Assembly: GCA_015521685.1 (NCBI GenBank)
Contig: WANT01000024.1
Location: forward strand, 901-64,900
Length of the DNA: 64,000 nt
Direction of reading: 5' to 3'
DNA from: Aeropyrum sp.
GTDB taxonomy: Archaea; Thermoproteota; Thermoprotei_A; Sulfolobales; Acidilobaceae
A program made the translations under genes and the position numbers. This document shows positions 3,509 to 33,974 of the stretch, one piece after another (within the stretch, counting starts at the first letter, position 1; every line of letters starts with the position of its first letter). A model generated the notes under the pieces. It searched no databases. It saw nothing but the letters and a program-made list of their open reading frames with translations, and was not told the origin of the DNA.

Positions 3509-3910
3509 ATGGAAGAGAGAGTCGTCGGCAAGCATGTCTATGGAAGCCTGTATAGTATCGACAAGAGTAAGGCGTGGGATGAGGATTACCTCAAGAGCCT
3601 TATGGTAAGGGCTGCAGAGGCCTCTGGAGCTACGGTTCACGCGGTCAATTCTTGGACAATCCCCGGAGAGAAGGGTGGAGTAAGCGTCATCGTTCTAGTG
3701 CTTGAAAGCCATCTAGCCCTCCACACGTGGCCCTACTACGACTATGCAACATTCGACATTTATACTTGTGGGGCCCACACTGACCCTTGGAAAGCCTTCG
3801 AGCTCTTGATCAGCGAGTTGAAGCCATCCCGATACAGGGTACATTACTCGGATAGGAGTCAAGAAATACTTCCACCACCTTCGAGTAGTGTGGCGGAGAG
3901 GTCTACGTGA
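3509..3910 (+). CDS. Pyruvoyl-dependent decarboxylase proenzyme (SpeD/AdoMetDC fold), probably the crenarchaeal arginine decarboxylase paralog
   Basis: GKHVYG start, self-cleavage site LE|SHLALHTWP, DIYTCG; KGGVSV loop resembles the arginine decarboxylase paralog as recalled. Confidence 0.85.
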   Translation: MEERVVGKHVYGSLYSIDKSKAWDEDYLKSLMVRAAEASGATVHAVNSWTIPGEKGGVSVIVLVLESHLALHTWPYYDYATFDIYTCGAHTDPWKAFELLISELKPSRYRVHYSDRSQEILPPPSSSVAERST

Positions 3911-5946
3911 AGGGGTATAGGCTTGTCTGTTGCGGCAAACACATATCCTCCTCTCAGGAAATAGCTCTGGACTAGCATGTACCTGTCCTGAAGGAATGGT
4001 ATAGCATCCCTTAGCTCAGCTGGAATCCCCATCCTCTCAGCGTGGCTCTTCTCTGTTCTTAGGACGATCTTCGTGTTTGCCAGCTGCATTATTATCTCGT
4101 GGAGGTCTGACGGGCTGTGTGTGCTGAACACAAGCCCAATCCCCCTGGCCCTCCCCAGCCTGGCGAGCGATGATATCATGGCTGCTATTTGCCTGTTAGC
4201 CTCCTGCTCCTCACCCCCACCCTTTTCCTGGGGGAAAAACTGGTGCGCCTCATCTATCACAACCATCACAGGCTTTACTCTTCTCCTGGCCACCCACTCT
4301 TTGTTTCTTGCTCGTAGAATGCCTTGTAATACCCTGTATGAAACTATTCTGGGAGCCCATATGCTGCTGCCACTCCTGTAGACAAGCCAAGACAGGTCTA
4401 CTACGACAGGCGATTTATGTTCGCCCGCCATCTTCAGGATATCGCCCCACATAGGCTCCCTTAACACGTTTATCCTCCATGAGAGACCGATCCTCTCTGC
4501 TATTGAGACATCAACTACACCAGTATCCATAAGTCCCTGAATCTTCCTATAGAGCGCTTCAACAGTGTGTTTATGAGGCTTAACCGTCGATAGAATTTTG
4601 AGTAGCAGGTCTATGGACTCAGCGACACTTAGCCCTAGGTTCGTTATCCTAGAGTTCTCTAGATCCTTAGGCTCTGCGAATCCAGCAACGCTAGCAGCTA
4701 CATTTTCTATAGCCCTGCTAGCTACCTCCTCATGCCCACCCTGTCTTCGGGTAGATATTGCCTCAAGATAGGACCTCAAAGCCGCTGCAATAATGTAGAG
4801 TGGAGGATAGCTGGAGCTGCCTGACAATTTGTAGAACCTTTCTCTTAGGGAGCGTAGAAGCTCCATCGAGAGCCTTGTTAATCCAGGCATCAGATTAGAG
4901 AGAGTCTCTCCAGGCATGTTCTCTCTACGCACGGTGTCGATAAAGTATGGGATGAGTACGAAGGGCTCGCCTCTAGCCACACAAATATCAATCCCATTTT
5001 TCTGCATGCAACTCCAGCTCGGAGTGTAACCTAGAAGTCTTGCTAGTACCTCGCTCCCATAAAGCCTTGCCACTCCTTCTCTTATATTCTTTGCCTCCTC
5101 CAGCTCCAGGATGGTGTCAAAACCTACTGGAAGCACAATTATAACATTCCCAGGCTGAGATATGCTAGAATACACTGGAAGTTCGGGAGAATTCCCCTTT
5201 AGCGGCAGCTGTGTGAAATCTCCATTCATATCGATAATCACAGGAAGAGGCCCGCCCTCGCTGGTGGACGAGGCAATCATATTCTTTAGTAGCGTGGTCT
5301 TGCCGCTGCCTGTAGTCCCGACTATAAGAACGTGATGTAGAATCGATTTGTGCGGTAGTCGTACTGGAATCCTACCGCCCGCCAGAGTGCCCGAGGAGTT
5401 CGCTAGTGCCCCTACCAATACCCCTGAAGCCGGAAGTGAGAGCATGTATCTTAGAACCTCTGGTGACGGATAAAAGGCTGGGCTCTGAGGCTCGACGGGA
5501 ATGGTGACAGGCCTAGACTCTAATCCGCTGTCTGGATCTCCTTCGAGAAGTAGCTTGACGGTTATTATAGGGTTTGTGAGGAGAGATTCTGGCTGACTAC
5601 TGGACAGGGGATCCCTGACTACTGGAGCCTCCACGCCTGCAAGCGCTAGCTCGTCAGATCTAGTTACCTTCGTTACCACGCCTAGTATAACTGTGTTGGT
5701 TTTAGGGTCAACGATTCCTATATAATCGCCTATCTTCACACCTCCTCTTGAGAAGTATATGCTAGAGTCGACTTCGACCTCTATCTCCCCACCCGGGTGG
5801 GTTGGTATAGGGTTATACCGAGTTACCCTTCCTACCAGCTCTCCTAACATCTTTGCTTTTTCAAACGCTCTCTCCATTTTATTTCTGAGCGTGGCTATGT
5901 CAAACGTTGGAACACCATCGCCGACCCATTTCTGCGTCTCCCCCAC
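3859..5946 (-). CDS. HerA/FtsK-superfamily ATPase (second, stand-alone HerA paralog)
   Basis: N-terminal HAS-barrel-like region, Walker A GTTGSGKT, Walker B VVIDEAH, RLGRARGIGLVFSTHSP (Arg-finger region). Confidence 0.88.
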   Translation of the reverse strand: MGETQKWVGDGVPTFDIATLRNKMERAFEKAKMLGELVGRVTRYNPIPTHPGGEIEVEVDSSIYFSRGGVKIGDYIGIVDPKTNTVILGVVTKVTRSDELALAGVEAPVVRDPLSSSQPESLLTNPIITVKLLLEGDPDSGLESRPVTIPVEPQSPAFYPSPEVLRYMLSLPASGVLVGALANSSGTLAGGRIPVRLPHKSILHHVLIVGTTGSGKTTLLKNMIASSTSEGGPLPVIIDMNGDFTQLPLKGNSPELPVYSSISQPGNVIIVLPVGFDTILELEEAKNIREGVARLYGSEVLARLLGYTPSWSCMQKNGIDICVARGEPFVLIPYFIDTVRRENMPGETLSNLMPGLTRLSMELLRSLRERFYKLSGSSSYPPLYIIAAALRSYLEAISTRRQGGHEEVASRAIENVAASVAGFAEPKDLENSRITNLGLSVAESIDLLLKILSTVKPHKHTVEALYRKIQGLMDTGVVDVSIAERIGLSWRINVLREPMWGDILKMAGEHKSPVVVDLSWLVYRSGSSIWAPRIVSYRVLQGILRARNKEWVARRRVKPVMVVIDEAHQFFPQEKGGGEEQEANRQIAAMISSLARLGRARGIGLVFSTHSPSDLHEIIMQLANTKIVLRTEKSHAERMGIPAELRDAIPFLQDRYMLVQSYFLRGGYVFAATDKPIPLHVDLSATLLEGGGSIS

Positions 5947-7127
5947 TATTGCATCCCCTCCATTAACGAGGTATGAGTCTGCGGGACACCCTCTAGTACT
6001 AAGCTCGAAGAGAGTGTTTTTCTGAGGGCGGCCGTTAGGCTCCTAGCCCTACGATCACTTCTCGCTATCGTGACAGGAGTAATAGACCCCCTTAGAATGG
6101 TCTCATCCACTAGAAGTGTGTGAGGTTTTAAGCCAAACCTTCCAAGGATCTCCCTGGATCTAGAGGTATACTCTAGCCTGTAGATCCTCGTCTTAGGGCC
6201 TATTAGCTTAACAGGACTTGTCGGCAAGACTATATATTCTGCCAGTTTCTCATACCCACCCTTATATGAAACTCTCAATGCTAGAGTCCTCAGAACGTGG
6301 GAAGCCCTCCACGCAGCACAGCCGCTTACTAAAGCTAATTCAAGAACCGCAGCATCACTAGCTGGCAACCTTCTGTCAGAACACTTCTCTAGGAGTACTC
6401 TTAATCCCTGAGATCTATGTATCAGGCTCGAGTGCTCCACCCTCTTAACAAAACCTAGAACAGGAACTCCCTTCTCCTCCAGGCTCGCTATCAACTCAGC
6501 TCTCTCATAGAGCAGTTTTTTATAAATACCGCTTCCATCGTGTGAGGCCTTTGATATTAGAGCACCATTTATTATCGGTCCATCTACCATCACAACAGTA
6601 CCGCCACTAATAGGTAGGTTTAGAATATCTCTGAGAATCTGGTTTTCCAGGCTGAAACGTAGTATGTCAAGGAACCCTTCCTCTCTGGTATCATGCGGAA
6701 TTTGGGTACTAGAGGTGTGAGTTTCACCCCTTGGCAATATTATGTATGGTTTTATTTTCTTGGTAAACTGGCTGGAAGCTGTTATCGTGGTGGACTCTAT
6801 GTTAGGAATCGATATTTCCACTGTTCGATACCTACTTGACGCTGCCGCAGCGCCCAGTAACACCACATGAGAGTAAGTCTCGATAGTGCGGCTACTCGAG
6901 TCCACACCTATAATCTCTAGATTGTGACTCGCTTCTCTAGCTTTAACTGGCTGAAAGGGTCTATAGTAGTATTCGTCCACTACTACCTTAACATCTGCAG
7001 GCTCTTCTGAGGGGTCTCCTATCCAGAGGTAGTGGTCGAGGCTCGGTGAAGGGAGCTTAACGCTTTTAGCTATGCCATCCGCCTTTACTATTTTTGTTAT
7101 TTCGCTGATCATGTCTAAGATTGGCAA
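5946..7127 (-). CDS. NurA-family nuclease paralog
   Basis: IIGVDSSS, RFSLE, VMVDGPI and GFVKRVEHS match NurA RNase H-like motifs; TAG stop overlaps the GTG start of the HerA paralog at 5946. Confidence 0.75.
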   Translation of the reverse strand: MPILDMISEITKIVKADGIAKSVKLPSPSLDHYLWIGDPSEEPADVKVVVDEYYYRPFQPVKAREASHNLEIIGVDSSSRTIETYSHVVLLGAAAASSRYRTVEISIPNIESTTITASSQFTKKIKPYIILPRGETHTSSTQIPHDTREEGFLDILRFSLENQILRDILNLPISGGTVVMVDGPIINGALISKASHDGSGIYKKLLYERAELIASLEEKGVPVLGFVKRVEHSSLIHRSQGLRVLLEKCSDRRLPASDAAVLELALVSGCAAWRASHVLRTLALRVSYKGGYEKLAEYIVLPTSPVKLIGPKTRIYRLEYTSRSREILGRFGLKPHTLLVDETILRGSITPVTIARSDRRARSLTAALRKTLSSSLVLEGVPQTHTSLMEGMQ

Positions 7128-7225
7128 GAGGGTGTTCCCTAACTAAAAGCCTATGGGTATTACCTTAAAAGATATCTATTTATTAGTATACCCTACATAA
7201 GGAAGGATTACTCGAACAAGGGTAA

Positions 7226-27042: not shown

Positions 27043-28710
27043 TTAGAGAGCATATTCCCCGAGGTCTACCTCTTCTCCTTCCCTAAGCTGCCTCCACTCA
27101 GCGACCATATCAATATCTGCCCCGCCAGTCTCAGTTTCGCACTTATCAATCTTAACAACAGCAGGGATTCTAGTCATACTTCCCATAATGAGGGCCTCAC
27201 CCGTGTTAAGGCTTGGAAGTATAGACGCGAGGTCCTCGCTCAGCTCCTCGCTCGCCGATTGGACGTATCTTATGTCTTGAGGCTCAACTATCTTCAAAAT
27301 GATCTTATTGTTGGTTTGGCTGAGTACGTCTGGATCTAGTCTCTTAGGCCTCTGACTCACAATTACTAATCCTGCACCGAACTTCCTACCCTCTCGAGCA
27401 ACCCGCGAAGCCCAAACCTTGGTAAGCCTGTGCTCGTCTTTCGGGATTAGAATATGCGCCTCCTCTATAACAAACAATACAGGATACCTGTAGATTTCTC
27501 CCGCCTGAATACCCTTGACAGCGTTAATCCTCCCCCTAAGCAACCTCCTCAAATAGTGGCTCACAACCGCATCAGCAGCAATGTCGTCGAGCATACTCAA
27601 ATCCATTATTGTAGCCTTCCCGGGCGGGACTATACTCTCGATGTCAGTTGGCATATCAGGGTTTATGGCAAACCTATAGTACTCGAGAAGATCGTTAAAC
27701 TTGTCGAGGACCCCCAAGAACTGGTCGAGCTTAGCAGTAGGTGCTTTATAGTCCGGAGCTATACCTACTATTTTCTTCATTGCATCTTCTAGAGGATTCT
27801 TGCTTGACGTCTTTTCGCCCGATATCATTTTATCAACAGCAGTCTCCAAAACCTCAACCGCTCTCTCCAAAACGTCTCTTGCTCCCAAAACCCTCCTCCT
27901 ATAAGCCTCCATCATACCCGTCCAAAGCCACCTGATAATTCTCCTCTGGACGCTGGCAGAGCCGGGAAGATCCATCAACTGTATCAGTTCCCCAAAGCTT
28001 AAGGATACAGGGTTAACGGCTGCGGGCCTCCACAATTTAGCCCTCTCCACGCCAAGGCCTAGGTCGCTGTATTCTCCGTGCCTATCGAAGATGACCACCG
28101 TCGCGCCTAGGCTTGAGACCATCCTCCTTGTGAGGACACAGACTGTATTGCTCTTACCTCCTCCTGTTACAGCGAGTATGGCTAGGTGCCTTCCCAGCCT
28201 GTTAACATCTATTTTGTACCTGACTCCTCCACCGAGCACACTACCTATCTCCATCCAGCTCTCTCCGGGCGGCGAGAAAATCCTTCTGAGGACCTCCTTG
28301 CCAGCGAGAAATACATTGTTTGCCGGCTGTGGCGGGATCTTGGGCGAGTCAACCGCGCCCCGCTCCACCAAGCTGTCTACATAACTAACCCACCTCACAC
28401 TACCATGGTGGTATCTCGACCTGTCGAGAATCCACTCCATATCGTCCCTGACAAGCCTCTCCACCGAGTGTGTGTCCTTCACATCCGCGCTCAGCAGAGG
28501 CACTCCTGACCTTATGCTCTCCACTACACCAAGAACGCAGCGGCCGTCGAGATACGTCACTACGTGAGATCCAACCATAACGCTGCCTATGCTGCCTGGG
28601 CTGAATAGGATGGTGCTGTGTGATGAGGTACTCTCACCTATAATCCACCCAACCATATCCCCAGCACAACTGGGTTCATAACCGGAGGACACTCCTGCCC
28701 ACCCCCTCAA
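27043..28710 (-). CDS. herA: Bipolar DNA helicase/translocase HerA (canonical)
   Basis: HAS barrel, AVTGGGKSN, VIEEAH, REGRKFG and SQRP; located in the mre11-rad50 operon. Confidence 0.93.
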   Translation of the reverse strand: MRGWAGVSSGYEPSCAGDMVGWIIGESTSSHSTILFSPGSIGSVMVGSHVVTYLDGRCVLGVVESIRSGVPLLSADVKDTHSVERLVRDDMEWILDRSRYHHGSVRWVSYVDSLVERGAVDSPKIPPQPANNVFLAGKEVLRRIFSPPGESWMEIGSVLGGGVRYKIDVNRLGRHLAILAVTGGGKSNTVCVLTRRMVSSLGATVVIFDRHGEYSDLGLGVERAKLWRPAAVNPVSLSFGELIQLMDLPGSASVQRRIIRWLWTGMMEAYRRRVLGARDVLERAVEVLETAVDKMISGEKTSSKNPLEDAMKKIVGIAPDYKAPTAKLDQFLGVLDKFNDLLEYYRFAINPDMPTDIESIVPPGKATIMDLSMLDDIAADAVVSHYLRRLLRGRINAVKGIQAGEIYRYPVLFVIEEAHILIPKDEHRLTKVWASRVAREGRKFGAGLVIVSQRPKRLDPDVLSQTNNKIILKIVEPQDIRYVQSASEELSEDLASILPSLNTGEALIMGSMTRIPAVVKIDKCETETGGADIDMVAEWRQLREGEEVDLGEYAL

Positions 28711-29890
28711 GACTCAAACCCATAACCAGAAGCGAGGACTCAAGGTCCTGGGAGGAAACTTTCGCTCTTTCATGGGCGATGAGAAGGTGCAGGGGATAGC
28801 CGCTAGGAGATATGTCTATCAAGGGCTTTAGGACCTCAGCTATATACTCGGCAGGGTTGAGGAGTTCTGGGGTGCTTGATGGAACCAGGGCTGAAACTGA
28901 GAGTATTGGACCAGCTGGAGACAGCCTGACATAAGTCCTAACCTCAGCAACCATTTCCGTGTAGAAACGCCTAAGGTCGCCAACGTCAGGGATAAACCTT
29001 CCTGAGGCCTCGTCCCCGCCCAAGCCTAGTATGTTTTCGATGCCGATTTTCACCATCGCGTCTCTTCTAAGAACCGCCAAGGAGGGCTCGGGCGGAGCAG
29101 CAGGATAGAGGTAAGCCACATCAGGGAGGGGGCCTCCGCAGGCCTCGCTAGATCTCGAGGTTTTAGCAACAAATATAGGAGTTATACTCTTTCTCCACGC
29201 TTCCCGCAGTAGGCTCATGTAGAGGTACAGCTTCTCAGCCACCTCAACCGCTATGAGCCATCTTAAATCCTTAGCAGAGTAAGTATTGGACCTGGCTAGT
29301 ATCATACCTAGCTTAGCGCTTGCAGGCCTTCTAACAGCTTTAGACACCAAGTCTTCCACACACTCACCCTTAACACTACACTCTATTCCTAGGATCGAGA
29401 GGTCTACGTCGACCAGCACACGCTTAGCAGTCTCGAGGGCTTGGCTCATCATCAAGTCTCTCCGCGCGAATCCAGGCCTCCACCACTTTAGTGCAGTTGC
29501 AGGACTGCCGTCTAGAAGTATGACACCTGGACCCTCTATCCGCCTAACCAGCTCGAGGGCTGTATATGCTTCTAGTACTTCCCTATATATGGATATCCTG
29601 GCTTCAGGCTCGACTGGAGGCACCACGACCCCAATCGCGTTGTACAGGGCCTCTGATCCCGACTGCGTCCCTGCCCAGGCCCTAGCCAGGTAGAATGTGA
29701 AGTCGCTGAAATCCAGCGACCTGTTACCGCCGTCAACAGCAATAATGGCTTCACCAAGTCTTTTCCCGTCCAGCTTTTTGAATCCAATGAGGCCCTCACA
29801 GCTATCTCTGCCTTCTGCTCGCCTCGATAGAATATCTCTAACTAGGGGTGAGACCTCCCGAGCCTCCTCCGCGATATCCCTAACCATCAA
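28676..29890 (-). CDS. nurA: DNA double-strand break repair nuclease NurA (canonical)
   Basis: IAVDGG, LLDGS, FVAKTS and GYPLHLLIAHERAKV; lies between rad50 and herA. Confidence 0.88.
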   Translation of the reverse strand: MMVRDIAEEAREVSPLVRDILSRRAEGRDSCEGLIGFKKLDGKRLGEAIIAVDGGNRSLDFSDFTFYLARAWAGTQSGSEALYNAIGVVVPPVEPEARISIYREVLEAYTALELVRRIEGPGVILLDGSPATALKWWRPGFARRDLMMSQALETAKRVLVDVDLSILGIECSVKGECVEDLVSKAVRRPASAKLGMILARSNTYSAKDLRWLIAVEVAEKLYLYMSLLREAWRKSITPIFVAKTSRSSEACGGPLPDVAYLYPAAPPEPSLAVLRRDAMVKIGIENILGLGGDEASGRFIPDVGDLRRFYTEMVAEVRTYVRLSPAGPILSVSALVPSSTPELLNPAEYIAEVLKPLIDISPSGYPLHLLIAHERAKVSSQDLESSLLVMGLSLEGVGRSVLRL

Positions 29891-32718
29891 GCTAGCCCAT
29901 CACCCCCACACCTTACAACACTACCTCTAGCCTGATCCCTTGTCACAATACACGTCACGTCTGCATAGTCCCTCACGTCCCCGTGGTGAGTTATGACTAT
30001 GAGCTGCTCCACAATCCCTTCCTCGCTAATGGCCCTTAGGAGCTCAACAAGCGCCTCTCGCCTAGGCTGGTCCAAATTACTAGTTGGCTCGTCGAGAGCT
30101 ATGAAGCCGAGTTTGGAACCTACAACCTTGTTCAAAGCAACTATGAAGGATATGGCCAGAGCTGTCTTCTCTCCGCCGCTTATAGCTGAGGCCTCGACCC
30201 TCCCACCCTCACTATTGTATACATTTAGCTCGATACCCTTACTACCCCTACTAGCTACGACCTCCCTCAGCTCCACGGCGCTTATAGAAAGGTCGAATCT
30301 TGACAGGAGATCATTTATCTCATCCTCGAGCATGGGTATGACGTGCTCGTATGACAGGTCCTTAACCTCCATTAAAATCCTTTTGGCTGCGAGTGCCGGT
30401 AGCAGTAGTCTTAGCAGTTTACTGCCTTCATCATACTCCTTCATATACTTCTCAGCTTGAGCTATAGCATGTGAGTACTTGAACATCAGGTCCTCGTAAC
30501 TCTTCCTTAACTCTCGGATCTTAGCCTCCAGCTCCCTTGCCCTCCTTACCAGCTCGCCCCTCCTCCTAACTCGGGAAGCTAGCTCCTCAATCTCCCTATT
30601 CACACTCTCCAGCCTCCCCTCAAACAATTCTATCTCAGCCTTGACACGCTCAACCTCTCCCACCACCTCCTCGAGCCGATTAGACTCCTCCAACAGCTTC
30701 TTGAGTATGGATTCGGCTCTGGCCAACTCACTCCTAGCCTTACTAAGAGCTTGCTCAAGGCTGCGGTCTCCTAGATTCAAGCCTAGTGACTTACCCAGCT
30801 CCTCTACAATTGAGGCCGCTCTCCTCCTTGATTCTTCAAGTAACTCTCTCTTCTCGGCAAGAGCGTCTCCTATAGAATCCTCTCTAACTCCTAGACCGAT
30901 TAGAACGCTATCAGCACTCTTCTTTAACCCCATAAGTCTGGCTATCTCGCTGGAGATGAGGCTCTTCTCTTTCTCGAGCTCCCTAAGCCTCATGTATAAG
31001 CCTCTAAATCTCTTCTCTAGGGTTTCGAGACGCTTTTGCGCTGATACTAGGTCCTCAATCGATTCTAATCCAATCTCCTCCAACCTATGTTCAAGACTCT
31101 TAGCTTCAATCAGTAAACTCTGGAGCTTTTCCCTTCTCTCCTCAAGACTTCCTAACTCCCGCCTAAGTGCATAGGCCTTTTCCGTAAGCTCGGCTGCCTC
31201 AGCCTCGAGACGCCTAGCCTCCACGAGGTAGTGTTTGACTAGTTCTTCCGCTCTCTCAGGTCTTAATGGGGAGCCGCATACCGGGCATCTACCATGACCA
31301 GCACTACCCTCCAGGACCTTGACAGCGTCCTTCATACTTTCTGCCTGAGATAGAATATAGCCTGCCCTCTCCTGCAGTCTTTCTAGCTCCTCCTTATACT
31401 TTGCTATCCTATCATCCAGGGAGGATAGCTCTTCTTCGAGCCTAGCCCTAAGCTCCTTTACTCCAATCTTGCAAGGCTTGCTACAATACTTCTCTCCTAC
31501 TCTCGCGAGATCCTCCATAAGTCTAGATGCCTGATTAACTTTTAATCTCGCCTCTTCTAGCTCTTTCTGCAGAGAATCATACTCTTTCCATGTAGTCTCA
31601 TATTCTTCTTCTATCTCCCTGAGCCTCAACTCCAGTTCTGGTATCCTTGAAACCTCTTCAAAGTCGGCCTTTACTTTCTCGAGGATTTTCACCTCGTTCT
31701 CTAACTTTGATATTCTTGAGGCCAGGGCTTCCCCCTCCTCTACAATGCTCTTCAACCTGAGCTTTGCCTCCAAAAGTTGCACCTCGTTCCTGATCTTCTC
31801 TATCCTAGCCTTCTCGCGCTCCAGCTGCACTAGCAGCGCCCTAAGACGGGATATGTGGTTGAGGATGCTCTCTCTCTCACGCTCTAGCCTTTCTAGCCTA
31901 TCCTTATCACTCTCAACCCTGGCTATCTCCGAGTTTACAAATCTAAGCTCGCTCTCCAATTTCTCCAGCTCGCTCTTCAAACTCTTCACTTTTCTCGTGA
32001 GAACCTTCTCTTCTTTACGATACTCGTCAGCAGCTAGCCTAGCCTCTAACACCCTATCTCTGGCCTTGATGTAGGCCCTACGAATACCGTCGAGTGTGGC
32101 AGCAGATCCTACGCTTAGTGTAGATGAGACTCCCTCTATCCTTATTTCGACATTGCCCAGCTCTTTAAACGCCTTCTCGTACACTGCCATTCCTAGGGCT
32201 GAATCCAAAAGCTTCCTCAGATCAGCTGGGCTAGCCAGCGTAGAGGCTATCTCGGCAAACCCGTCCTGCGAGACTATAATTGCCTTTTTAATATATGATG
32301 CTGGATCAGGAATCCCCCTTAGGCCGAGAATCCTGTGGATCTCTCCACTGTAACCTTTGGCTGTAGAGGTTATTCTCCTGCCTCCAACCCTTATCAATGC
32401 TGATTTTTTCTTAATGCTCCTTTGCTCCCTTGTTAGCATTAGGCTTAGATCTACATCATCCCCTCCAAGCTGGTTCTCTAGAGTCAGTGATATGCGCCCT
32501 GAGTGGGCTCCACTGCTGATTATGCTCTTTCCTCTCGGGGAATCGAAGGGCGTAAGGGCGTACAATATCGCCTCAAATATGCTGCTCTTTCCAGCACCGT
32601 TCTCACCCACAATTGCAGTGAACCCCTTAGAAAACTCTATCGACGTGCTCTTATGCGATAGAATGTTCTCAAGCCTCAGTCTCCTCAACGTGTAGAGGCC
32701 CTCAGCCATGAGCCTCAC
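29887..32718 (-). CDS. rad50: Rad50 ATPase
   Basis: GENGAGKSS, long coiled coil with Zn hook CPVC, signature ISGGE, LDEPT, ITH. Confidence 0.96.
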   Translation of the reverse strand: MRLMAEGLYTLRRLRLENILSHKSTSIEFSKGFTAIVGENGAGKSSIFEAILYALTPFDSPRGKSIISSGAHSGRISLTLENQLGGDDVDLSLMLTREQRSIKKKSALIRVGGRRITSTAKGYSGEIHRILGLRGIPDPASYIKKAIIVSQDGFAEIASTLASPADLRKLLDSALGMAVYEKAFKELGNVEIRIEGVSSTLSVGSAATLDGIRRAYIKARDRVLEARLAADEYRKEEKVLTRKVKSLKSELEKLESELRFVNSEIARVESDKDRLERLERERESILNHISRLRALLVQLEREKARIEKIRNEVQLLEAKLRLKSIVEEGEALASRISKLENEVKILEKVKADFEEVSRIPELELRLREIEEEYETTWKEYDSLQKELEEARLKVNQASRLMEDLARVGEKYCSKPCKIGVKELRARLEEELSSLDDRIAKYKEELERLQERAGYILSQAESMKDAVKVLEGSAGHGRCPVCGSPLRPERAEELVKHYLVEARRLEAEAAELTEKAYALRRELGSLEERREKLQSLLIEAKSLEHRLEEIGLESIEDLVSAQKRLETLEKRFRGLYMRLRELEKEKSLISSEIARLMGLKKSADSVLIGLGVREDSIGDALAEKRELLEESRRRAASIVEELGKSLGLNLGDRSLEQALSKARSELARAESILKKLLEESNRLEEVVGEVERVKAEIELFEGRLESVNREIEELASRVRRRGELVRRARELEAKIRELRKSYEDLMFKYSHAIAQAEKYMKEYDEGSKLLRLLLPALAAKRILMEVKDLSYEHVIPMLEDEINDLLSRFDLSISAVELREVVASRGSKGIELNVYNSEGGRVEASAISGGEKTALAISFIVALNKVVGSKLGFIALDEPTSNLDQPRREALVELLRAISEEGIVEQLIVITHHGDVRDYADVTCIVTRDQARGSVVRCGGDGLA

Positions 32719-33974
32719 CTGACCCCCAGGATAGACTCCCAGACCTTCTTGTCGACCTTGGCCGCAAGCTTCTCTAGAACCCTTACAACACCCTCCTCAT
32801 CACCAGATATGGCTGAATCCACAAGGTCCTGAAGTATCAGGGCCGAAGCCTGCTCTGGTATCTTATAATGATCCGATACTATCTTCACAAGGCTTAGAGA
32901 ACCCTTGTGTACCAGCCCTCGCTTTAAGTCATCCCTCTTACCCGCAACTTTCCAGTGTATCTTCAATAATGCGCCGGCTTCCGAGGCGGCCCTAACACCT
33001 TCCCTAATGACTAGAGCTTTCGGCACGTCACCACTAGACTTTATTACCAAGTGGATTAGAGGCCTCTTACCAGGATACTTAGAGGCTTCTGCCAAGATCT
33101 TACGCCTAACCTCTGCAACTAGCCAGCGGCGAGCATCACTACCTGTATGTAGCCCCCCACTCTCAGAGCCTCGATTATAATCAACCTCAACCACAGCTTG
33201 AGGCCTGCGCTCTAATCTTATCTCCTCTACACCTGGCGAATCTCCGCTCAGATCAACCCAGAGAGGAGAGCCCGGAGTTTTAATCTCATCTATCCTGAGC
33301 GGGTCGAGTACACCTGGGTATGCATAGGGGACTCTAGAGTCAAGCCTTATCCTTTTACTGTGAATGTGGCCTAGGGCCACGTAGTCCATAGATTCTGGCA
33401 GCTCTAAGGGGGATACCGGTGCGTCGTACGGTAGTTCAACGTCTAGCGCGAAGTGGCCTAAAAGAATCTTTTTGCCCATCCTTCCACGTGCGACATCATC
33501 GAAGTACCTGAATATCTTGAGAAGACTATTCTTCCTTTTATCTGCCTCCTCCCTAAAGAAGGGAGTTACGAAGACTGTCAGGCCGTTAAGGTCTATTACC
33601 AAGTTCCTAAGCATAGCTTCCCCACCTGCACCTCGCCTCAGTACCGGCGCCTTAAACCTGTCCAGCATAGCATCTAGAAGCGTCAACACAGTCTCGTCTA
33701 GCGTATGGGGAGTGTCATGCTCTCCATGAGCAACTATAACATTGATTCCTTTCTCGTCGAGGGCTCTAAACAATCTCGCTGCCCTCTTAAGATCCTTAAG
33801 AGGAGGCCTAGGCTTGTCGAACAAGTCGCCAGCTATTACCACAGCATCAGGCCTGTCCCTCAGAATAATATCCACTACGGTTTCGAATGTCCTGAAGACG
33901 TCTTCACGCCTCTCCTCCATGTTATAGGGTTTGGCGGCAAGATGGACGTCAGCTAAGTGCAATATAGTGGCCAC
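32715..33974 (-). CDS. mre11: Mre11 nuclease
   Basis: HLADVHL, AGDLFD, HGEHD, LGHF, ALGHIH and YPG phosphoesterase motifs. Confidence 0.95.
   Translation of the reverse strand: MATILHLADVHLAAKPYNMEERREDVFRTFETVVDIILRDRPDAVVIAGDLFDKPRPPLKDLKRAARLFRALDEKGINVIVAHGEHDTPHTLDETVLTLLDAMLDRFKAPVLRRGAGGEAMLRNLVIDLNGLTVFVTPFFREEADKRKNSLLKIFRYFDDVARGRMGKKILLGHFALDVELPYDAPVSPLELPESMDYVALGHIHSKRIRLDSRVPYAYPGVLDPLRIDEIKTPGSPLWVDLSGDSPGVEEIRLERRPQAVVEVDYNRGSESGGLHTGSDARRWLVAEVRRKILAEASKYPGKRPLIHLVIKSSGDVPKALVIREGVRAASEAGALLKIHWKVAGKRDDLKRGLVHKGSLSLVKIVSDHYKIPEQASALILQDLVDSAISGDEEGVVRVLEKLAAKVDKKVWESILGVR

Follow-up and report, generated by a model that had tools for sequence, protein, structure and literature searches.

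Described HerA-NurA systems and the locus in Aeropyrum

The canonical HerA-NurA complex, which resects DNA ends, is represented by structures from S. solfataricus (4D2I/2YGK), T. kodakarensis (9X1L/9X1M) and D. radiodurans (7F6D), and the canonical herA, nurA, mre11 and rad50 genes are each essential in Sulfolobus (PMC4351679, PMC6249222). CRISPR-associated relatives have been described as Cas NurA and Cas HerA (Bernick 2012, PMC3396285; Vestergaard 2014, PMC3973734); they are clusters 57/58 of Shah 2018 and the PADLOC models PDLC01055/01056. A HerA-fold hexameric ATPase is also combined with an effector in SIR2-HerA, DUF4297-HerA and TdpAB. In addition, Sulfolobales carry a stand-alone nurA-herA operon, SiRe_0094/0095, in keeping with the statement of the first-pass annotation that HerA/NurA paralogues are known in crenarchaea and largely uncharacterised.

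The window, by which we mean the whole stretch of 64,000 nucleotides that was analysed, was proposed in the same annotation to encode a second NurA-HerA pair apart from mre11-rad50. The coordinates, the Pfam matches and a separate canonical operon bear this out. The 393-aa NurA2 matched Pfam NurA with an E-value of 5e-15 (56 bits; cut-off 21) and the 695-aa HerA2 matched the DUF87/HerA central domain with 39 bits (cut-off 23) as well as HerA_C. The features of the pair and of the canonical operon, which lies outside the unit and serves as comparator, are as follows:

5946..7127, minus strand: nurA2, NurA-like RNase-H-fold nuclease, 393 aa from TTG 7127 or 388 aa from ATG 7112
3859..5946, minus strand: herA2, HerA-family hexameric DNA translocase ATPase, 695 aa, GTG start
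5944..5961, minus strand: nurA2/herA2 junction, GGAGGGG + TAG + GTG, from sequence
7128..7225, minus strand: upstream intergenic region with TATA-like boxes, putative operon promoter, from sequence
27043-28710, minus strand: canonical herA (NF040937 HerA_Thermprot, 396 bits)
28676-29890, minus strand: canonical nurA
29887-32718, minus strand: canonical rad50
32715-33974, minus strand: canonical mre11
27043..33974, minus strand: canonical mre11-rad50-nurA-herA operon, 20 kb from nurA2-herA2

The junction reads ...caaTAGTGggg, with the nurA2 stop TAG at 5948-5946 and the herA2 start GTG at 5946-5944, so that the overlap noted earlier at 5946 amounts to one base. A Shine-Dalgarno-like GGAGGGG is located at 5961-5955, 8 nt ahead of the GTG, and an overlap of the nurA2 stop with the herA2 start, or a distance of at most 35 nt between them, was seen in 21 of 23 related loci. 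The arrangement suggests a two-gene operon with translational coupling. Upstream of nurA2, two TATA-like boxes, TTTTAAGG at 7170-7163 and TTTTAGTT at 7148-7141, mark the putative promoter; ATG 7112, in frame and about 30 nt downstream of the latter box, is a plausible alternative, near-leaderless nurA2 start and would be a small correction to the earlier reading.

In its gene context the pair differs from canonical HerA-NurA, since it lies outside the mre11-rad50 operon, although the nuclease gene adjoins the motor gene in both. Membership in the canonical complex was rejected by position, as the operon 20 kb away has its own nurA and herA; the spacing is likewise 21 kb in A. pernix K1. Identity with the canonical equivalogs (NF040937, NF040819, NF041033) was also rejected because the scores fall far below the NCBIfam cut-offs: HerA2 reached 49 and 53 bits where 800 and 970 are required, and a search with NurA2 gave no NCBIfam match.

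Conserved residues and predicted folds

The pair had been described as highly diverged from its canonical counterparts, and sequence identity was indeed near noise level. HerA2 matched the canonical HerA of the window only in two patches of 27-30% identity, and BLASTP of NurA2 against the canonical NurA returned no significant match (E 0.5). The folds are nevertheless predicted to be the same as in canonical HerA-NurA. The AlphaFold model of HerA2 (pLDDT 90.4) is HerA-like, its closest structures being the HerA proteins of T. kodakarensis, S. solfataricus and D. radiodurans, and that of NurA2 (pLDDT 83.9) is NurA-like, closest to D. radiodurans NurA (7f6d_G) and S. solfataricus NurA (2ygk_A).

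The acidic motifs of NurA2 are retained, as claimed: IIGVDSSSR (D76), LE (E161) and VDGP (D182) are invariant in 23 relatives, in which R157, the G-P following D182, R209, K228, D258, E319 and D358 are unchanged as well. Profile comparison aligned D76/E161/D182 with canonical D53/E107/D127. The catalytic set of canonical NurA (D58/E116/D133/K202) is thus present as D76/E161/D182/K228, all invariant, with K228 assigned as the probable counterpart of K202 from its motif context.

HerA2 has an intact Walker A motif, GTTGSGKT (K216), and an intact Walker B motif, VIDEAH (D565/E566). K216, D239, E566 and R599 are unchanged across 48 relatives and match K154/D176/E356/R381, which experiments have shown to be critical in Sulfolobus HerA. 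The canonical counterparts of the invariant residues of both proteins are needed in vitro and in vivo (PMC4351679). With every residue known to be necessary for ATPase and nuclease activity conserved, the pair appears catalytically competent.

HerA2 departs from canonical HerA in two respects that had also been pointed out in advance. The Walker A lysine and the Walker B glutamate are 350 residues apart, compared with about 230 in the canonical HerA of the window, so the long insert of roughly 120 additional residues is real; and the protein reads FSTHSP where the canonical one has SQRP. In this replacement of SQR by STH, R393 becomes an invariant H610, and a second conserved position, R142-H143, is changed to H/Q/N-H. 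These changes may alter ATP sensing or coupling relative to canonical HerA.

The HerA-based anti-phage systems share the combination of a HerA-fold hexameric ATPase with an effector, and TdpB (8wfd_G) shares the NurA-like fold with NurA2. Foldseek E-values of HerA2 to the anti-phage HerAs were only slightly weaker than to canonical HerA. We rejected an identity with these systems: HerA2 scored 29-33 bits on the NCBIfam HerA_antiphage models (cut-offs 800-850), and the partner is NurA-like; none of the genes neighbouring the pair encodes a SIR2, DUF4297 or phosphorothioation (tdpC-like) protein.

Processing of imported DNA had been suggested as a function, and the Ced system offers a setting for it, in which the pair would process DNA for, or after, cell-to-cell exchange. 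A. pernix has a Ced system, HerA-NurA has been proposed to generate its ssDNA substrate (PMC9905601; PMC11823120), and the genome analysed here encodes a CedD-like (213 bits) and a CedB-like ATPase. These ATPases are encoded on two other contigs, however, and ced genes were not recognised in the loci examined. HerA2 itself scored 42 bits on the CedD model (cut-off 600) and 23 bits on the CedB model (cut-off 700), and the N-terminal hydrophobic segment of the CedD-like and CedB-like proteins was not seen in its sequence, so that an identity as Ced/Ted import ATPase was rejected. Moreover, it is canonical HerA-NurA to which the published proposal refers, and TedD is the gene called 'HerA-like' at Ted loci. 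The suggestion thus found no backing at this locus, and we consider such a role highly improbable.

Inheritance, gene neighbourhood and the Sulfolobus orthologue

In two HerA trees, HerA2 fell into a clade with an SH-aLRT of 100, here called clade A, which comprises the window, A. pernix, other Acidilobaceae, Desulfurococcaceae, one further family and the Sulfolobaceae copies, and which excludes canonical HerA and the other paralogous clades. The NurA2 tree recovered the same groups. The subclades track taxonomy, the family is limited to hyperthermophilic crenarchaea, and matches were found in 182 of the 274 genomes of the class (41/48, 46/54 and 43/43 in three families). About 50 kb of the window (2555-53481) is collinear with A. 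pernix K1, and HerA2 is 57% identical between the two, at a median of 58.7% over 44 genes. Vertical inheritance of the pair goes back at least to the common ancestor of the four families forming the clade. NurA2 has evolved markedly faster (38% identity to A. pernix K1 against a median of 59% for neighbouring genes); relaxed constraint is one possible cause, an arms race another.

In 25 of 28 loci the genes for NurA2 and HerA2 stand side by side, and every other neighbour is clade-specific. In the window these are genes for a nitroreductase and an AdoMetDC-fold protein, and the context of about 40 clade-A loci is one of housekeeping genes. PADLOC gave no defence match among the genes neighbouring nurA2-herA2. 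In contrast to the patchy SIR2-HerA, DUF4297-HerA and TdpAB, the distribution is vertical and near-universal. The pair is a fixed chromosomal gene pair and not a mobile defence island.

Nor is it new as a family. It is the orthologue of SiRe_0094/0095 = M164_0095/0096 = SiL_0094/0095 = SSO2284/2285 = Saci_0148/0147 (arCOG00287/arCOG00284, assigned through orthology to genes listed under these arCOGs by Zhang et al. 2018). In three Sulfolobaceae loci of clade A, a NurA of about 366-369 aa and a HerA of about 600 aa, whose genes overlap by 4 nt, are followed by ORFs of 127-135 and 306-314 aa. This is the published order in S. islandicus, where M164_0095 (1119 nt) and M164_0096 (1830 nt) overlap by 4 nt and precede M164_0097 (390 nt) and M164_0098 (957 nt) (PMC6249222), and these sequences are thus the published genes. 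The Sulfolobales operon falls into the same clade of both trees, shares the nurA-then-herA order, the stop/start overlap and the invariant catalytic residues, and likewise adjoins neither mre11-rad50 nor CRISPR. It differs in its flanking genes and in the length of HerA, which is about 90 aa greater in Aeropyrum and other Acidilobaceae (695 vs ~600-610 aa) owing to a larger helical insert.

Transposon insertions were recovered in both Sulfolobus genes, 9 in M164_0095 and 21 in M164_0096 (PMC6249222), so the orthologue is non-essential, unlike the canonical genes. In gel-shift assays the CRISPR regulator Csa3a bound the SiRe_0094 promoter, and over-expression of csa3a raised SiRe_0095 protein 1.21-fold (PMC5587795). 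The operon promoter is also bound by the cell-cycle repressor aCcr1, which in S. acidocaldarius represses saci_0148 along with nucS, called 'DNA repair nucleases' there. Regulation by Csa3a and aCcr1 has been shown in Sulfolobus, and descriptions of aCcr1 are confined to Sulfolobales. The literature found under the orthologue locus tags (SiRe_0094/0095, SSO2284/2285, Saci_0147/0148 and others) consisted of the Csa3a and aCcr1/TFB2 papers.

The shared regulation with nucS is one of several observations that would suit a back-up or specialised factor of homologous recombination, i.e. a duplicated end-resection module of the canonical pathway, engaged in routine repair when certain lesions arise or when the cell cycle reaches a given stage. 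Linkage of the pair to the canonical genes is persistent: besides the spacing given above for the window and A. pernix, several Desulfurococcaceae (four loci) have the pair immediately upstream of canonical nurA-herA, one Acidilobaceae MAG has it about 5 kb from mre11-rad50, and in S. islandicus it is about 30 genes from the canonical genes. In Desulfurococcaceae the neighbours of the pair include a DHH/RecJ-like and an AP-endonuclease-2-fold protein. The linkage may, however, be the remnant of an ancient tandem duplication; DNA-damage induction of the paralogue was not reported in the literature consulted; and the canonical four genes are essential despite the presence of the paralogue, which is therefore unable to replace them. 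Of the strictly vertical inheritance with a demonstrated routine repair role that would have refuted the reading of the first-pass annotation, the former was found and the latter was not. We regard this explanation as unlikely.

A link to CRISPR emerges from the relatives of clade A. Its nearest clades are CRISPR-linked NurA-(Csm6)-HerA pairs of Thermoproteales, of which the NurA-Csm6-HerA clade is its sister in the ML tree (SH-aLRT 95) and has a CRISPR array at a distance of 7 kb or less in 11 of 13 loci. Among other close clades, L125 is located between arrays and L123 3.2 kb from a 46-repeat array, while L176, a long-branch member placed with clade A, is 1.1 kb from a 53-repeat array. Profile scores separate the subfamily common to Cas NurA/Cas HerA and the window pair sharply from canonical HerA (340-930 vs 30-54 bits). 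The top PADLOC models for the proteins of the window, with E-values of 2e-48 and 2.6e-7, were the 'HerA/NurA, Type III coevolved' models, which match all clade-A genes too, with 110-163 bits for the window's proteins against 190-257 for true CRISPR-linked members. An identity as CRISPR-associated Cas NurA/Cas HerA was nevertheless rejected, because the pair falls into the sister clade in the ML tree and has a housekeeping context, with no nearby CRISPR array or cas gene and, unlike the Thermoproteales form, no csm6/CARF gene between or beside nurA2 and herA2.

These relationships argue for a role in immunity and not in maintenance. The pair could be an immunity auxiliary that plays the part of RecBCD in archaea: it would degrade linear viral or plasmid DNA and supply CRISPR prespacers, or finish targets nicked by CRISPR interference, and its place in the core chromosome would follow from CRISPR-Cas being near-universal in these organisms. 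Csa3a at the SiRe_0094 promoter, the non-essential orthologue and the fast evolution of NurA2 are in line with this. Against it, no CRISPR array was found within 8-10 kb of the roughly 40 clade-A loci or on the 64.9-kb contig of the window, the arrays of the genome sitting on three other contigs. An AU test (p 0.31) did not discriminate between branching orders with clade A inside and outside the CRISPR-linked clades. The Csa3a effect is small, and since sites were present at the canonical operon and dpo2 in the same study (PMC5587795), the binding is not specific to nurA2-herA2; a further counterpoint is the co-repression of saci_0148 and nucS by aCcr1. We rate this explanation as somewhat unlikely. 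Of the antiviral function put forward in the first-pass annotation, the hallmarks of a stand-alone system are missing, given the vertical inheritance, the housekeeping 50-kb block and the PADLOC-negative neighbours; an indirect link stands through the CRISPR-embedded nearest clades and Csa3a.

Proposed activity of NurA2-HerA2

The explanation that we consider moderately probable is an ATP-driven, Mre11/Rad50-independent machine for the degradation of DNA ends, orthologous to SiRe_0094/0095, with an accessory and non-essential role. A NurA2 dimer would be docked on a HerA2 hexamer in a 6:2 complex, with DNA ends as the presumed substrate. Linear double-stranded DNA would be threaded through the HerA2 ring under ATP and digested by NurA2 with no need for Mre11-Rad50. 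In the cell the machine may be specialised for dealing with DNA that is broken or linear, perhaps in connection with CRISPR adaptation; a role in defence or adaptation is possible and has indirect support, and the pair cannot stand in for the essential canonical complex.

A more specific form, to which we give little credence, would make NurA2-HerA2 the crenarchaeal counterpart of RecBCD/AddAB, chewing linear foreign or broken DNA independently of Mre11/Rad50 and feeding prespacers to Cas1-Cas2-Cas4. If true, it would explain the CRISPR-resident sister clade in Thermoproteales, the binding of Csa3a to the promoter in Sulfolobus and the fast evolution of NurA2.

The second NurA-HerA pair and its predicted active-site residues

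The window carries, on one strand, a stand-alone gene pair, here termed nurA2 and herA2, and the canonical operon with the NurA-HerA pair associated with Mre11-Rad50:

3859–5946, minus strand: herA2, 695 aa; Pfam DUF87/HerA central domain and HerA_C
5946–7127, minus strand: nurA2, 393 aa; Pfam NurA, 5e-15, 56 bits against a cut-off of 21
27043–33974, minus strand: canonical mre11-rad50-nurA-herA operon

The TAG stop codon of nurA2 (5948–5946) and the GTG start codon of herA2 (5946–5944) share one base in the junction caaTAGTGggg, and a GGAGGGG run can be read from the sequence 8 nt 5' of this GTG. For nurA2, an ATG at 7112 may serve as the start codon in place of the one at 7127. The sequence TAATACC 5' of nurA2 resembles the box TAATACT of the cell-cycle repressor aCcr1, a motif of only 7 nt for a regulator described only for Sulfolobales. 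At its 3' end, herA2 overlaps the 3' end of a convergent AdoMetDC-fold gene (3509–3910) by 52 nt (3859–3910), and the same convergent overlap, of 16 nt, is present in A. pernix K1 (locus L055, 12067–12082).

The first-pass annotation had described a pair with intact NurA and Walker motifs, a long insert and STH instead of SQR in HerA2, and every one of these elements proved correct. The strong divergence from the canonical pair was also borne out: the NCBIfam model HerA_Thermprot scored 396 bits with canonical HerA versus 49 bits with HerA2, pairwise identity between the two HerAs (27–30%) was confined to two patches around the Walker motifs, and BLASTP gave no significant match between NurA2 and canonical NurA.

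In an alignment of HerA2 with 48 relatives, K216 (Walker A), D239, D565/E566 (Walker B), R599 and T609-H610 were invariant. By mutagenesis, K154, D176, E356 and the trans-acting R381 of Sulfolobus HerA were found to be needed for ATPase activity, for coupling to the nuclease and for viability (PMC4351679). These residues, the numbering of which was checked on chain 4d2i, correspond to K216, D239, E566 and R599 of HerA2 in a pairwise alignment. S608-T609-H610 of HerA2 stands where canonical HerA has S391-Q392-R393, and H/Q/N204-H205 where it has R142-H143; both substitutions are family-specific and kept within the HerA2 family. For NurA2, the residues invariant in 23 relatives are D76, R157, E161, D182-G-P, R209, V227-K228-R229, D258, Y298, R317, E319 and D358. 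A profile comparison placed D76, E161 and D182 on the D, E and D of canonical NurA, with a probability of 33% over the N-terminal catalytic half only and a canonical alignment of four sequences. The activity of Sulfolobus NurA depends on the equivalent D58, E116 and D133 and on K202 (PMC4351679), the likely counterpart of K228.

The AlphaFold2 model of HerA2 was confident (pLDDT 90.4) and had the HerA proteins of T. kodakarensis, S. solfataricus and D. radiodurans as top PDB matches (E 1e-24 to 1e-21), with the HerAs of SIR2-HerA, DUF4297-HerA and TdpAB close behind; for TdpAB, we found only a passing mention in the literature. In this model, the insert between the Walker motifs (~residues 276–500) is enlarged by ~120 extra residues and is mostly helical with two small beta elements. 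PDB searches with NurA2, either as a single sequence or as a 23-sequence profile, gave nothing at E <= 1, and NurA structures were recovered by fold comparison only: the top matches of the NurA2 model (pLDDT 83.9) were the NurA proteins of D. radiodurans and S. solfataricus, and TdpB and the related EndoV fold were further matches. On sequence grounds, these data support nurA2/herA2 as an active nuclease-motor pair that would resemble canonical HerA-NurA and work without Mre11-Rad50, and we infer that NurA2 and HerA2 form a complex.

Distribution, inheritance and genomic context

With a HerA2 profile, family members scored 340–930 bits versus 30–54 bits for canonical HerAs, and HerA2 is thus a sharply separate subfamily. 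It is small: a search of 1.84 billion representative proteins gave only 113 clusters at E <= 1e-30. Matches of the HerA2/NurA2 type were obtained in 182 of the 274 genomes of the class; the window's own family had them in 41 of 48 genomes, family f5, the loci of which coincide with MAGs labelled Desulfurococcaceae, in 46 of 54, and family f11, with the Sulfolobaceae-type gene order, in all 43. Losses in the 274-genome search occur as whole genera. In a phylum-wide sample, the NurA2 profile matched 75 of 401 genomes, all within eight families, which are those of the class search plus Thermoproteales-type families; in the largest other family, it matched none of 61 genomes.

Two HerA2 trees were calculated using IQ-TREE (LG+C20 PMSF) as quick searches without bootstraps, with SH-aLRT support only. 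In both runs, the HerA2 of the window fell into a fully supported group, clade A, together with sequences from A. pernix (57% identity), Acidilobaceae, Desulfurococcaceae and family f9 and the SiRe_0095-type genes of Sulfolobaceae. The subclades track taxonomy, and the pair is present in ~85–100% of the genomes in three of the four families of clade A and in about two-thirds in the fourth. The NurA2 tree recovered the same groups as the HerA2 tree, indicating that the two proteins co-evolve.

The window pair is surrounded by genes for the AdoMetDC-fold protein, MoaB, dCTP deaminase, a nitroreductase, a PHP protein and a C-N hydrolase. In PADLOC, there was no defence match for any neighbouring gene, and A. 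pernix K1 has the same gene order around its pair. Since window positions 2555–53481 are collinear with 53.3–104.8 kb of A. pernix K1 at a median amino-acid identity of 59%, the MAG-like genome of the window is a deep-branching member of the GTDB genus that it shares with A. pernix. Pairs of Desulfurococcaceae are flanked by genes for a DHH protein, an AP-endonuclease-2-fold protein, CDP-alcohol phosphatidyltransferase, NUDIX and CYTH proteins and V-ATPase. Among 28 loci compared, only nurA2 and herA2 are conserved together (adjacent in 25, mostly overlapping), and the other neighbours are each specific to one clade. In evolutionary terms, the two genes behave as a core pair passed on vertically and not as a mobile defence island. 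The phylogeny and neighbourhood analysis proposed in the first-pass annotation gave a vertical pattern, a tree by taxonomy and a housekeeping context. The proposed Mre11/Rad50-independent machine retains the support of the sequence evidence; for the suggested defence role, the support is indirect, and the vertical pattern speaks against a stand-alone defence system.

In several Desulfurococcaceae, the second pair lies directly 5' of canonical nurA-herA. Elsewhere, the linkage is looser: 20 kb (window), 21 kb (A. pernix) or ~5 kb (one Acidilobaceae MAG) separate the pair from the canonical operon, and in S. islandicus the gap is about 30 genes. Such linkage would fit an ancient tandem duplication. 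The Desulfurococcaceae tandems, of the order nurA2-herA2-nurA-herA on one strand, are found at L010:6623–12847, L012:6629–12771, L016:100–4280 and L144:6954–13126, and neither mre11 nor rad50 was detected in these four loci.

The nuclease evolves much faster than the motor, as judged from 38% versus 57% identity to A. pernix K1 at a median of 59%:

Amino-acid identity to A. pernix K1
Median of 44 collinear genes: 58.7%
HerA2: 57.0%
Canonical HerA: 60.1%
Canonical NurA: 52.9%
NurA2: 38.2% (window 5946–7127 versus G039:C1:56602–57750)

CRISPR-linked relatives and the Sulfolobus orthologues

Outside clade A, a Thermoproteales clade has the order NurA2-like gene, one or two csm6-sized ORFs and HerA2-like gene, which is the arrangement described by Bernick et al. 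2012 (PMC3396285), and a CRISPR array lies <=7 kb away in 11 of its 13 loci. Another clade comes from families f9 and f12; there, one member has an array on either side and a second has a 46-repeat array at a distance of 3.2 kb. One genome (G168) holds a clade-A pair plus a CRISPR-embedded pair. More basal HerA2 branches consist of second and third pairs of Sulfolobaceae, Caldisphaera and Thermoproteales. The Thermoproteales CRISPR clade was the sister of clade A in the ML tree (SH-aLRT 95). Since an AU test did not reject a single group of CRISPR-linked clades excluding clade A (p 0.306, log-likelihood difference 5.1), we claim only a close kinship of these clades with clade A and no branching order.

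With the HerA model 'Type III coevolved' of PADLOC, CRISPR-adjacent members scored highest, at 190–257 bits, and clade A reached 110–170 bits. The PADLOC matches had raised the suspicion that the pair itself is a CRISPR accessory, which was rejected because clade-A loci are without nearby arrays: no array was found within 8–10 kb of ~40 clade-A loci or on the window's 64.9-kb contig. An exception, L176, 1.1 kb from an array, is a long branch with weakly supported placement in clade A. The arrays of the window's genome sit at contig ends (C11, C41 and C53), and a search of this genome for Cas10 with TIGR02577 (Cmr2) gave no match. Genome G114, which we take to be T. aggregans, the source of Vestergaard's exemplars Tagg_0814/0815, has its only HerA2 pair at ~82–86 kb; since this position does not fit the locus-tag numbers, Tagg_0814/0815 may be members of another HerA family.

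According to the supplementary gene list of the essential-genome study in S. islandicus (PMC6249222), M164_0095 ('NurA-like', arCOG00287, 1119 nt) equals SiRe_0094, SSO2284 and Saci_0148, and M164_0096 (HerA, arCOG00284, 1830 nt, 4-nt overlap) equals SiRe_0095, SSO2285 and Saci_0147. A 390-nt gene and then a 957-nt gene come after this pair in S. islandicus (PMC6249222), and the loci of Acidianus, Metallosphaera and genome G237 agree with it exactly in gene order and gene sizes. The window pair is an ordinary orthologue of a known, uncharacterised family. This family has been visible for more than 10 years in arCOGs, CRISPR-accessory surveys and regulon tables, and we found no functional test, deletion phenotype or biochemistry for any member in the literature. 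Full texts with the tags SiRe_0094/0095, SSO2284/2285, Saci_0147/0148, ST2248/2249 or Msed_2081/2082 were only the Csa3a and aCcr1/TFB2 papers, and a 2026 NurA review does not contain the word 'paralog', nor do the passages of it that were consulted take up these pairs.

M164_0095 and M164_0096 are non-essential since they carry 9 and 21 transposon insertions, respectively, while the canonical four genes are essential (PMC6249222), and the pair is thus not a simple back-up. A routine back-up role in repair is improbable. With regard to regulation, gel-shift assays showed binding of the CRISPR-adaptation activator Csa3a to the SiRe_0094 promoter at two sites, and over-expression of csa3a raised the SiRe_0095 protein 1.21-fold (PMC5587795). 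The SiL_0094 promoter has an aCcr1 box and the operon goes down upon aCcr1 over-expression (PMC9976892); in S. acidocaldarius, aCcr1 occupies the promoters of saci_0148 and nucS (bioRxiv 10.64898/2026.09.06.749720). Most likely, the pair would be an accessory factor with a specialised task, the handling of broken or linear DNA. The main rival, a RecBCD-like machine feeding or assisting CRISPR, would fit the CRISPR-embedded sister clades, Csa3a binding and the fast evolution of NurA2; given the array-free clade-A loci, we regard it as rather unlikely, albeit slightly less so than the repair back-up. If the pair does supply spacer precursors, a real gap in archaeal CRISPR biology would be filled. 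Orthology to SiRe_0094/0095 and kinship with the CRISPR-embedded NurA-Csm6-HerA clade turn a vague 'paralogue' into a defined question for the tractable Sulfolobus, namely whether the pair serves genome maintenance, CRISPR adaptation/interference or both.

Other HerA- and NurA-type genes

The window's genome also encodes two membrane-anchored HerA/VirB4-like ATPases (G000:C41:49472–51046 and G000:C35:16764–18179). One of them matches NCBIfam CedD over its full length with 213 bits (cut-off 600), and the other has a weak CedB match and adjoins a multi-pass membrane protein; together, they probably belong to a Ced-type DNA-import system. Because these CedD-like and CedB-like ATPases are located elsewhere in the genome, participation of nurA2/herA2 in DNA exchange through Ced is unlikely, and the processing of imported DNA that had been suggested initially has no support. 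A CRISPR array at the end of the contig lies ~13 kb from the CedD-like gene.

A third cluster of Sulfolobaceae (L127:2295–8741 in genome G251; M164_0014–0017 in S. islandicus) consists of a NurA-like gene (arCOG07312), a gene of unassigned type, an SMC/Rad50-like ATPase of ~1000 aa (arCOG07313) and a HerA (arCOG00280). The entire mre11-rad50 operon seems to have a paralogue in this cluster, which is non-essential by Tn-seq. An extra, shorter pair (NurA ~335–360 aa, HerA ~530–540 aa) is present in Caldisphaera and some Sulfolobaceae, e.g. at L153:9607–12269 (G043) and L131:7397–10013 (G237), and takes a basal position in the HerA2 subfamily. In G043, presumably a Caldisphaera, this shorter pair is only ~14 kb from the clade-A pair.
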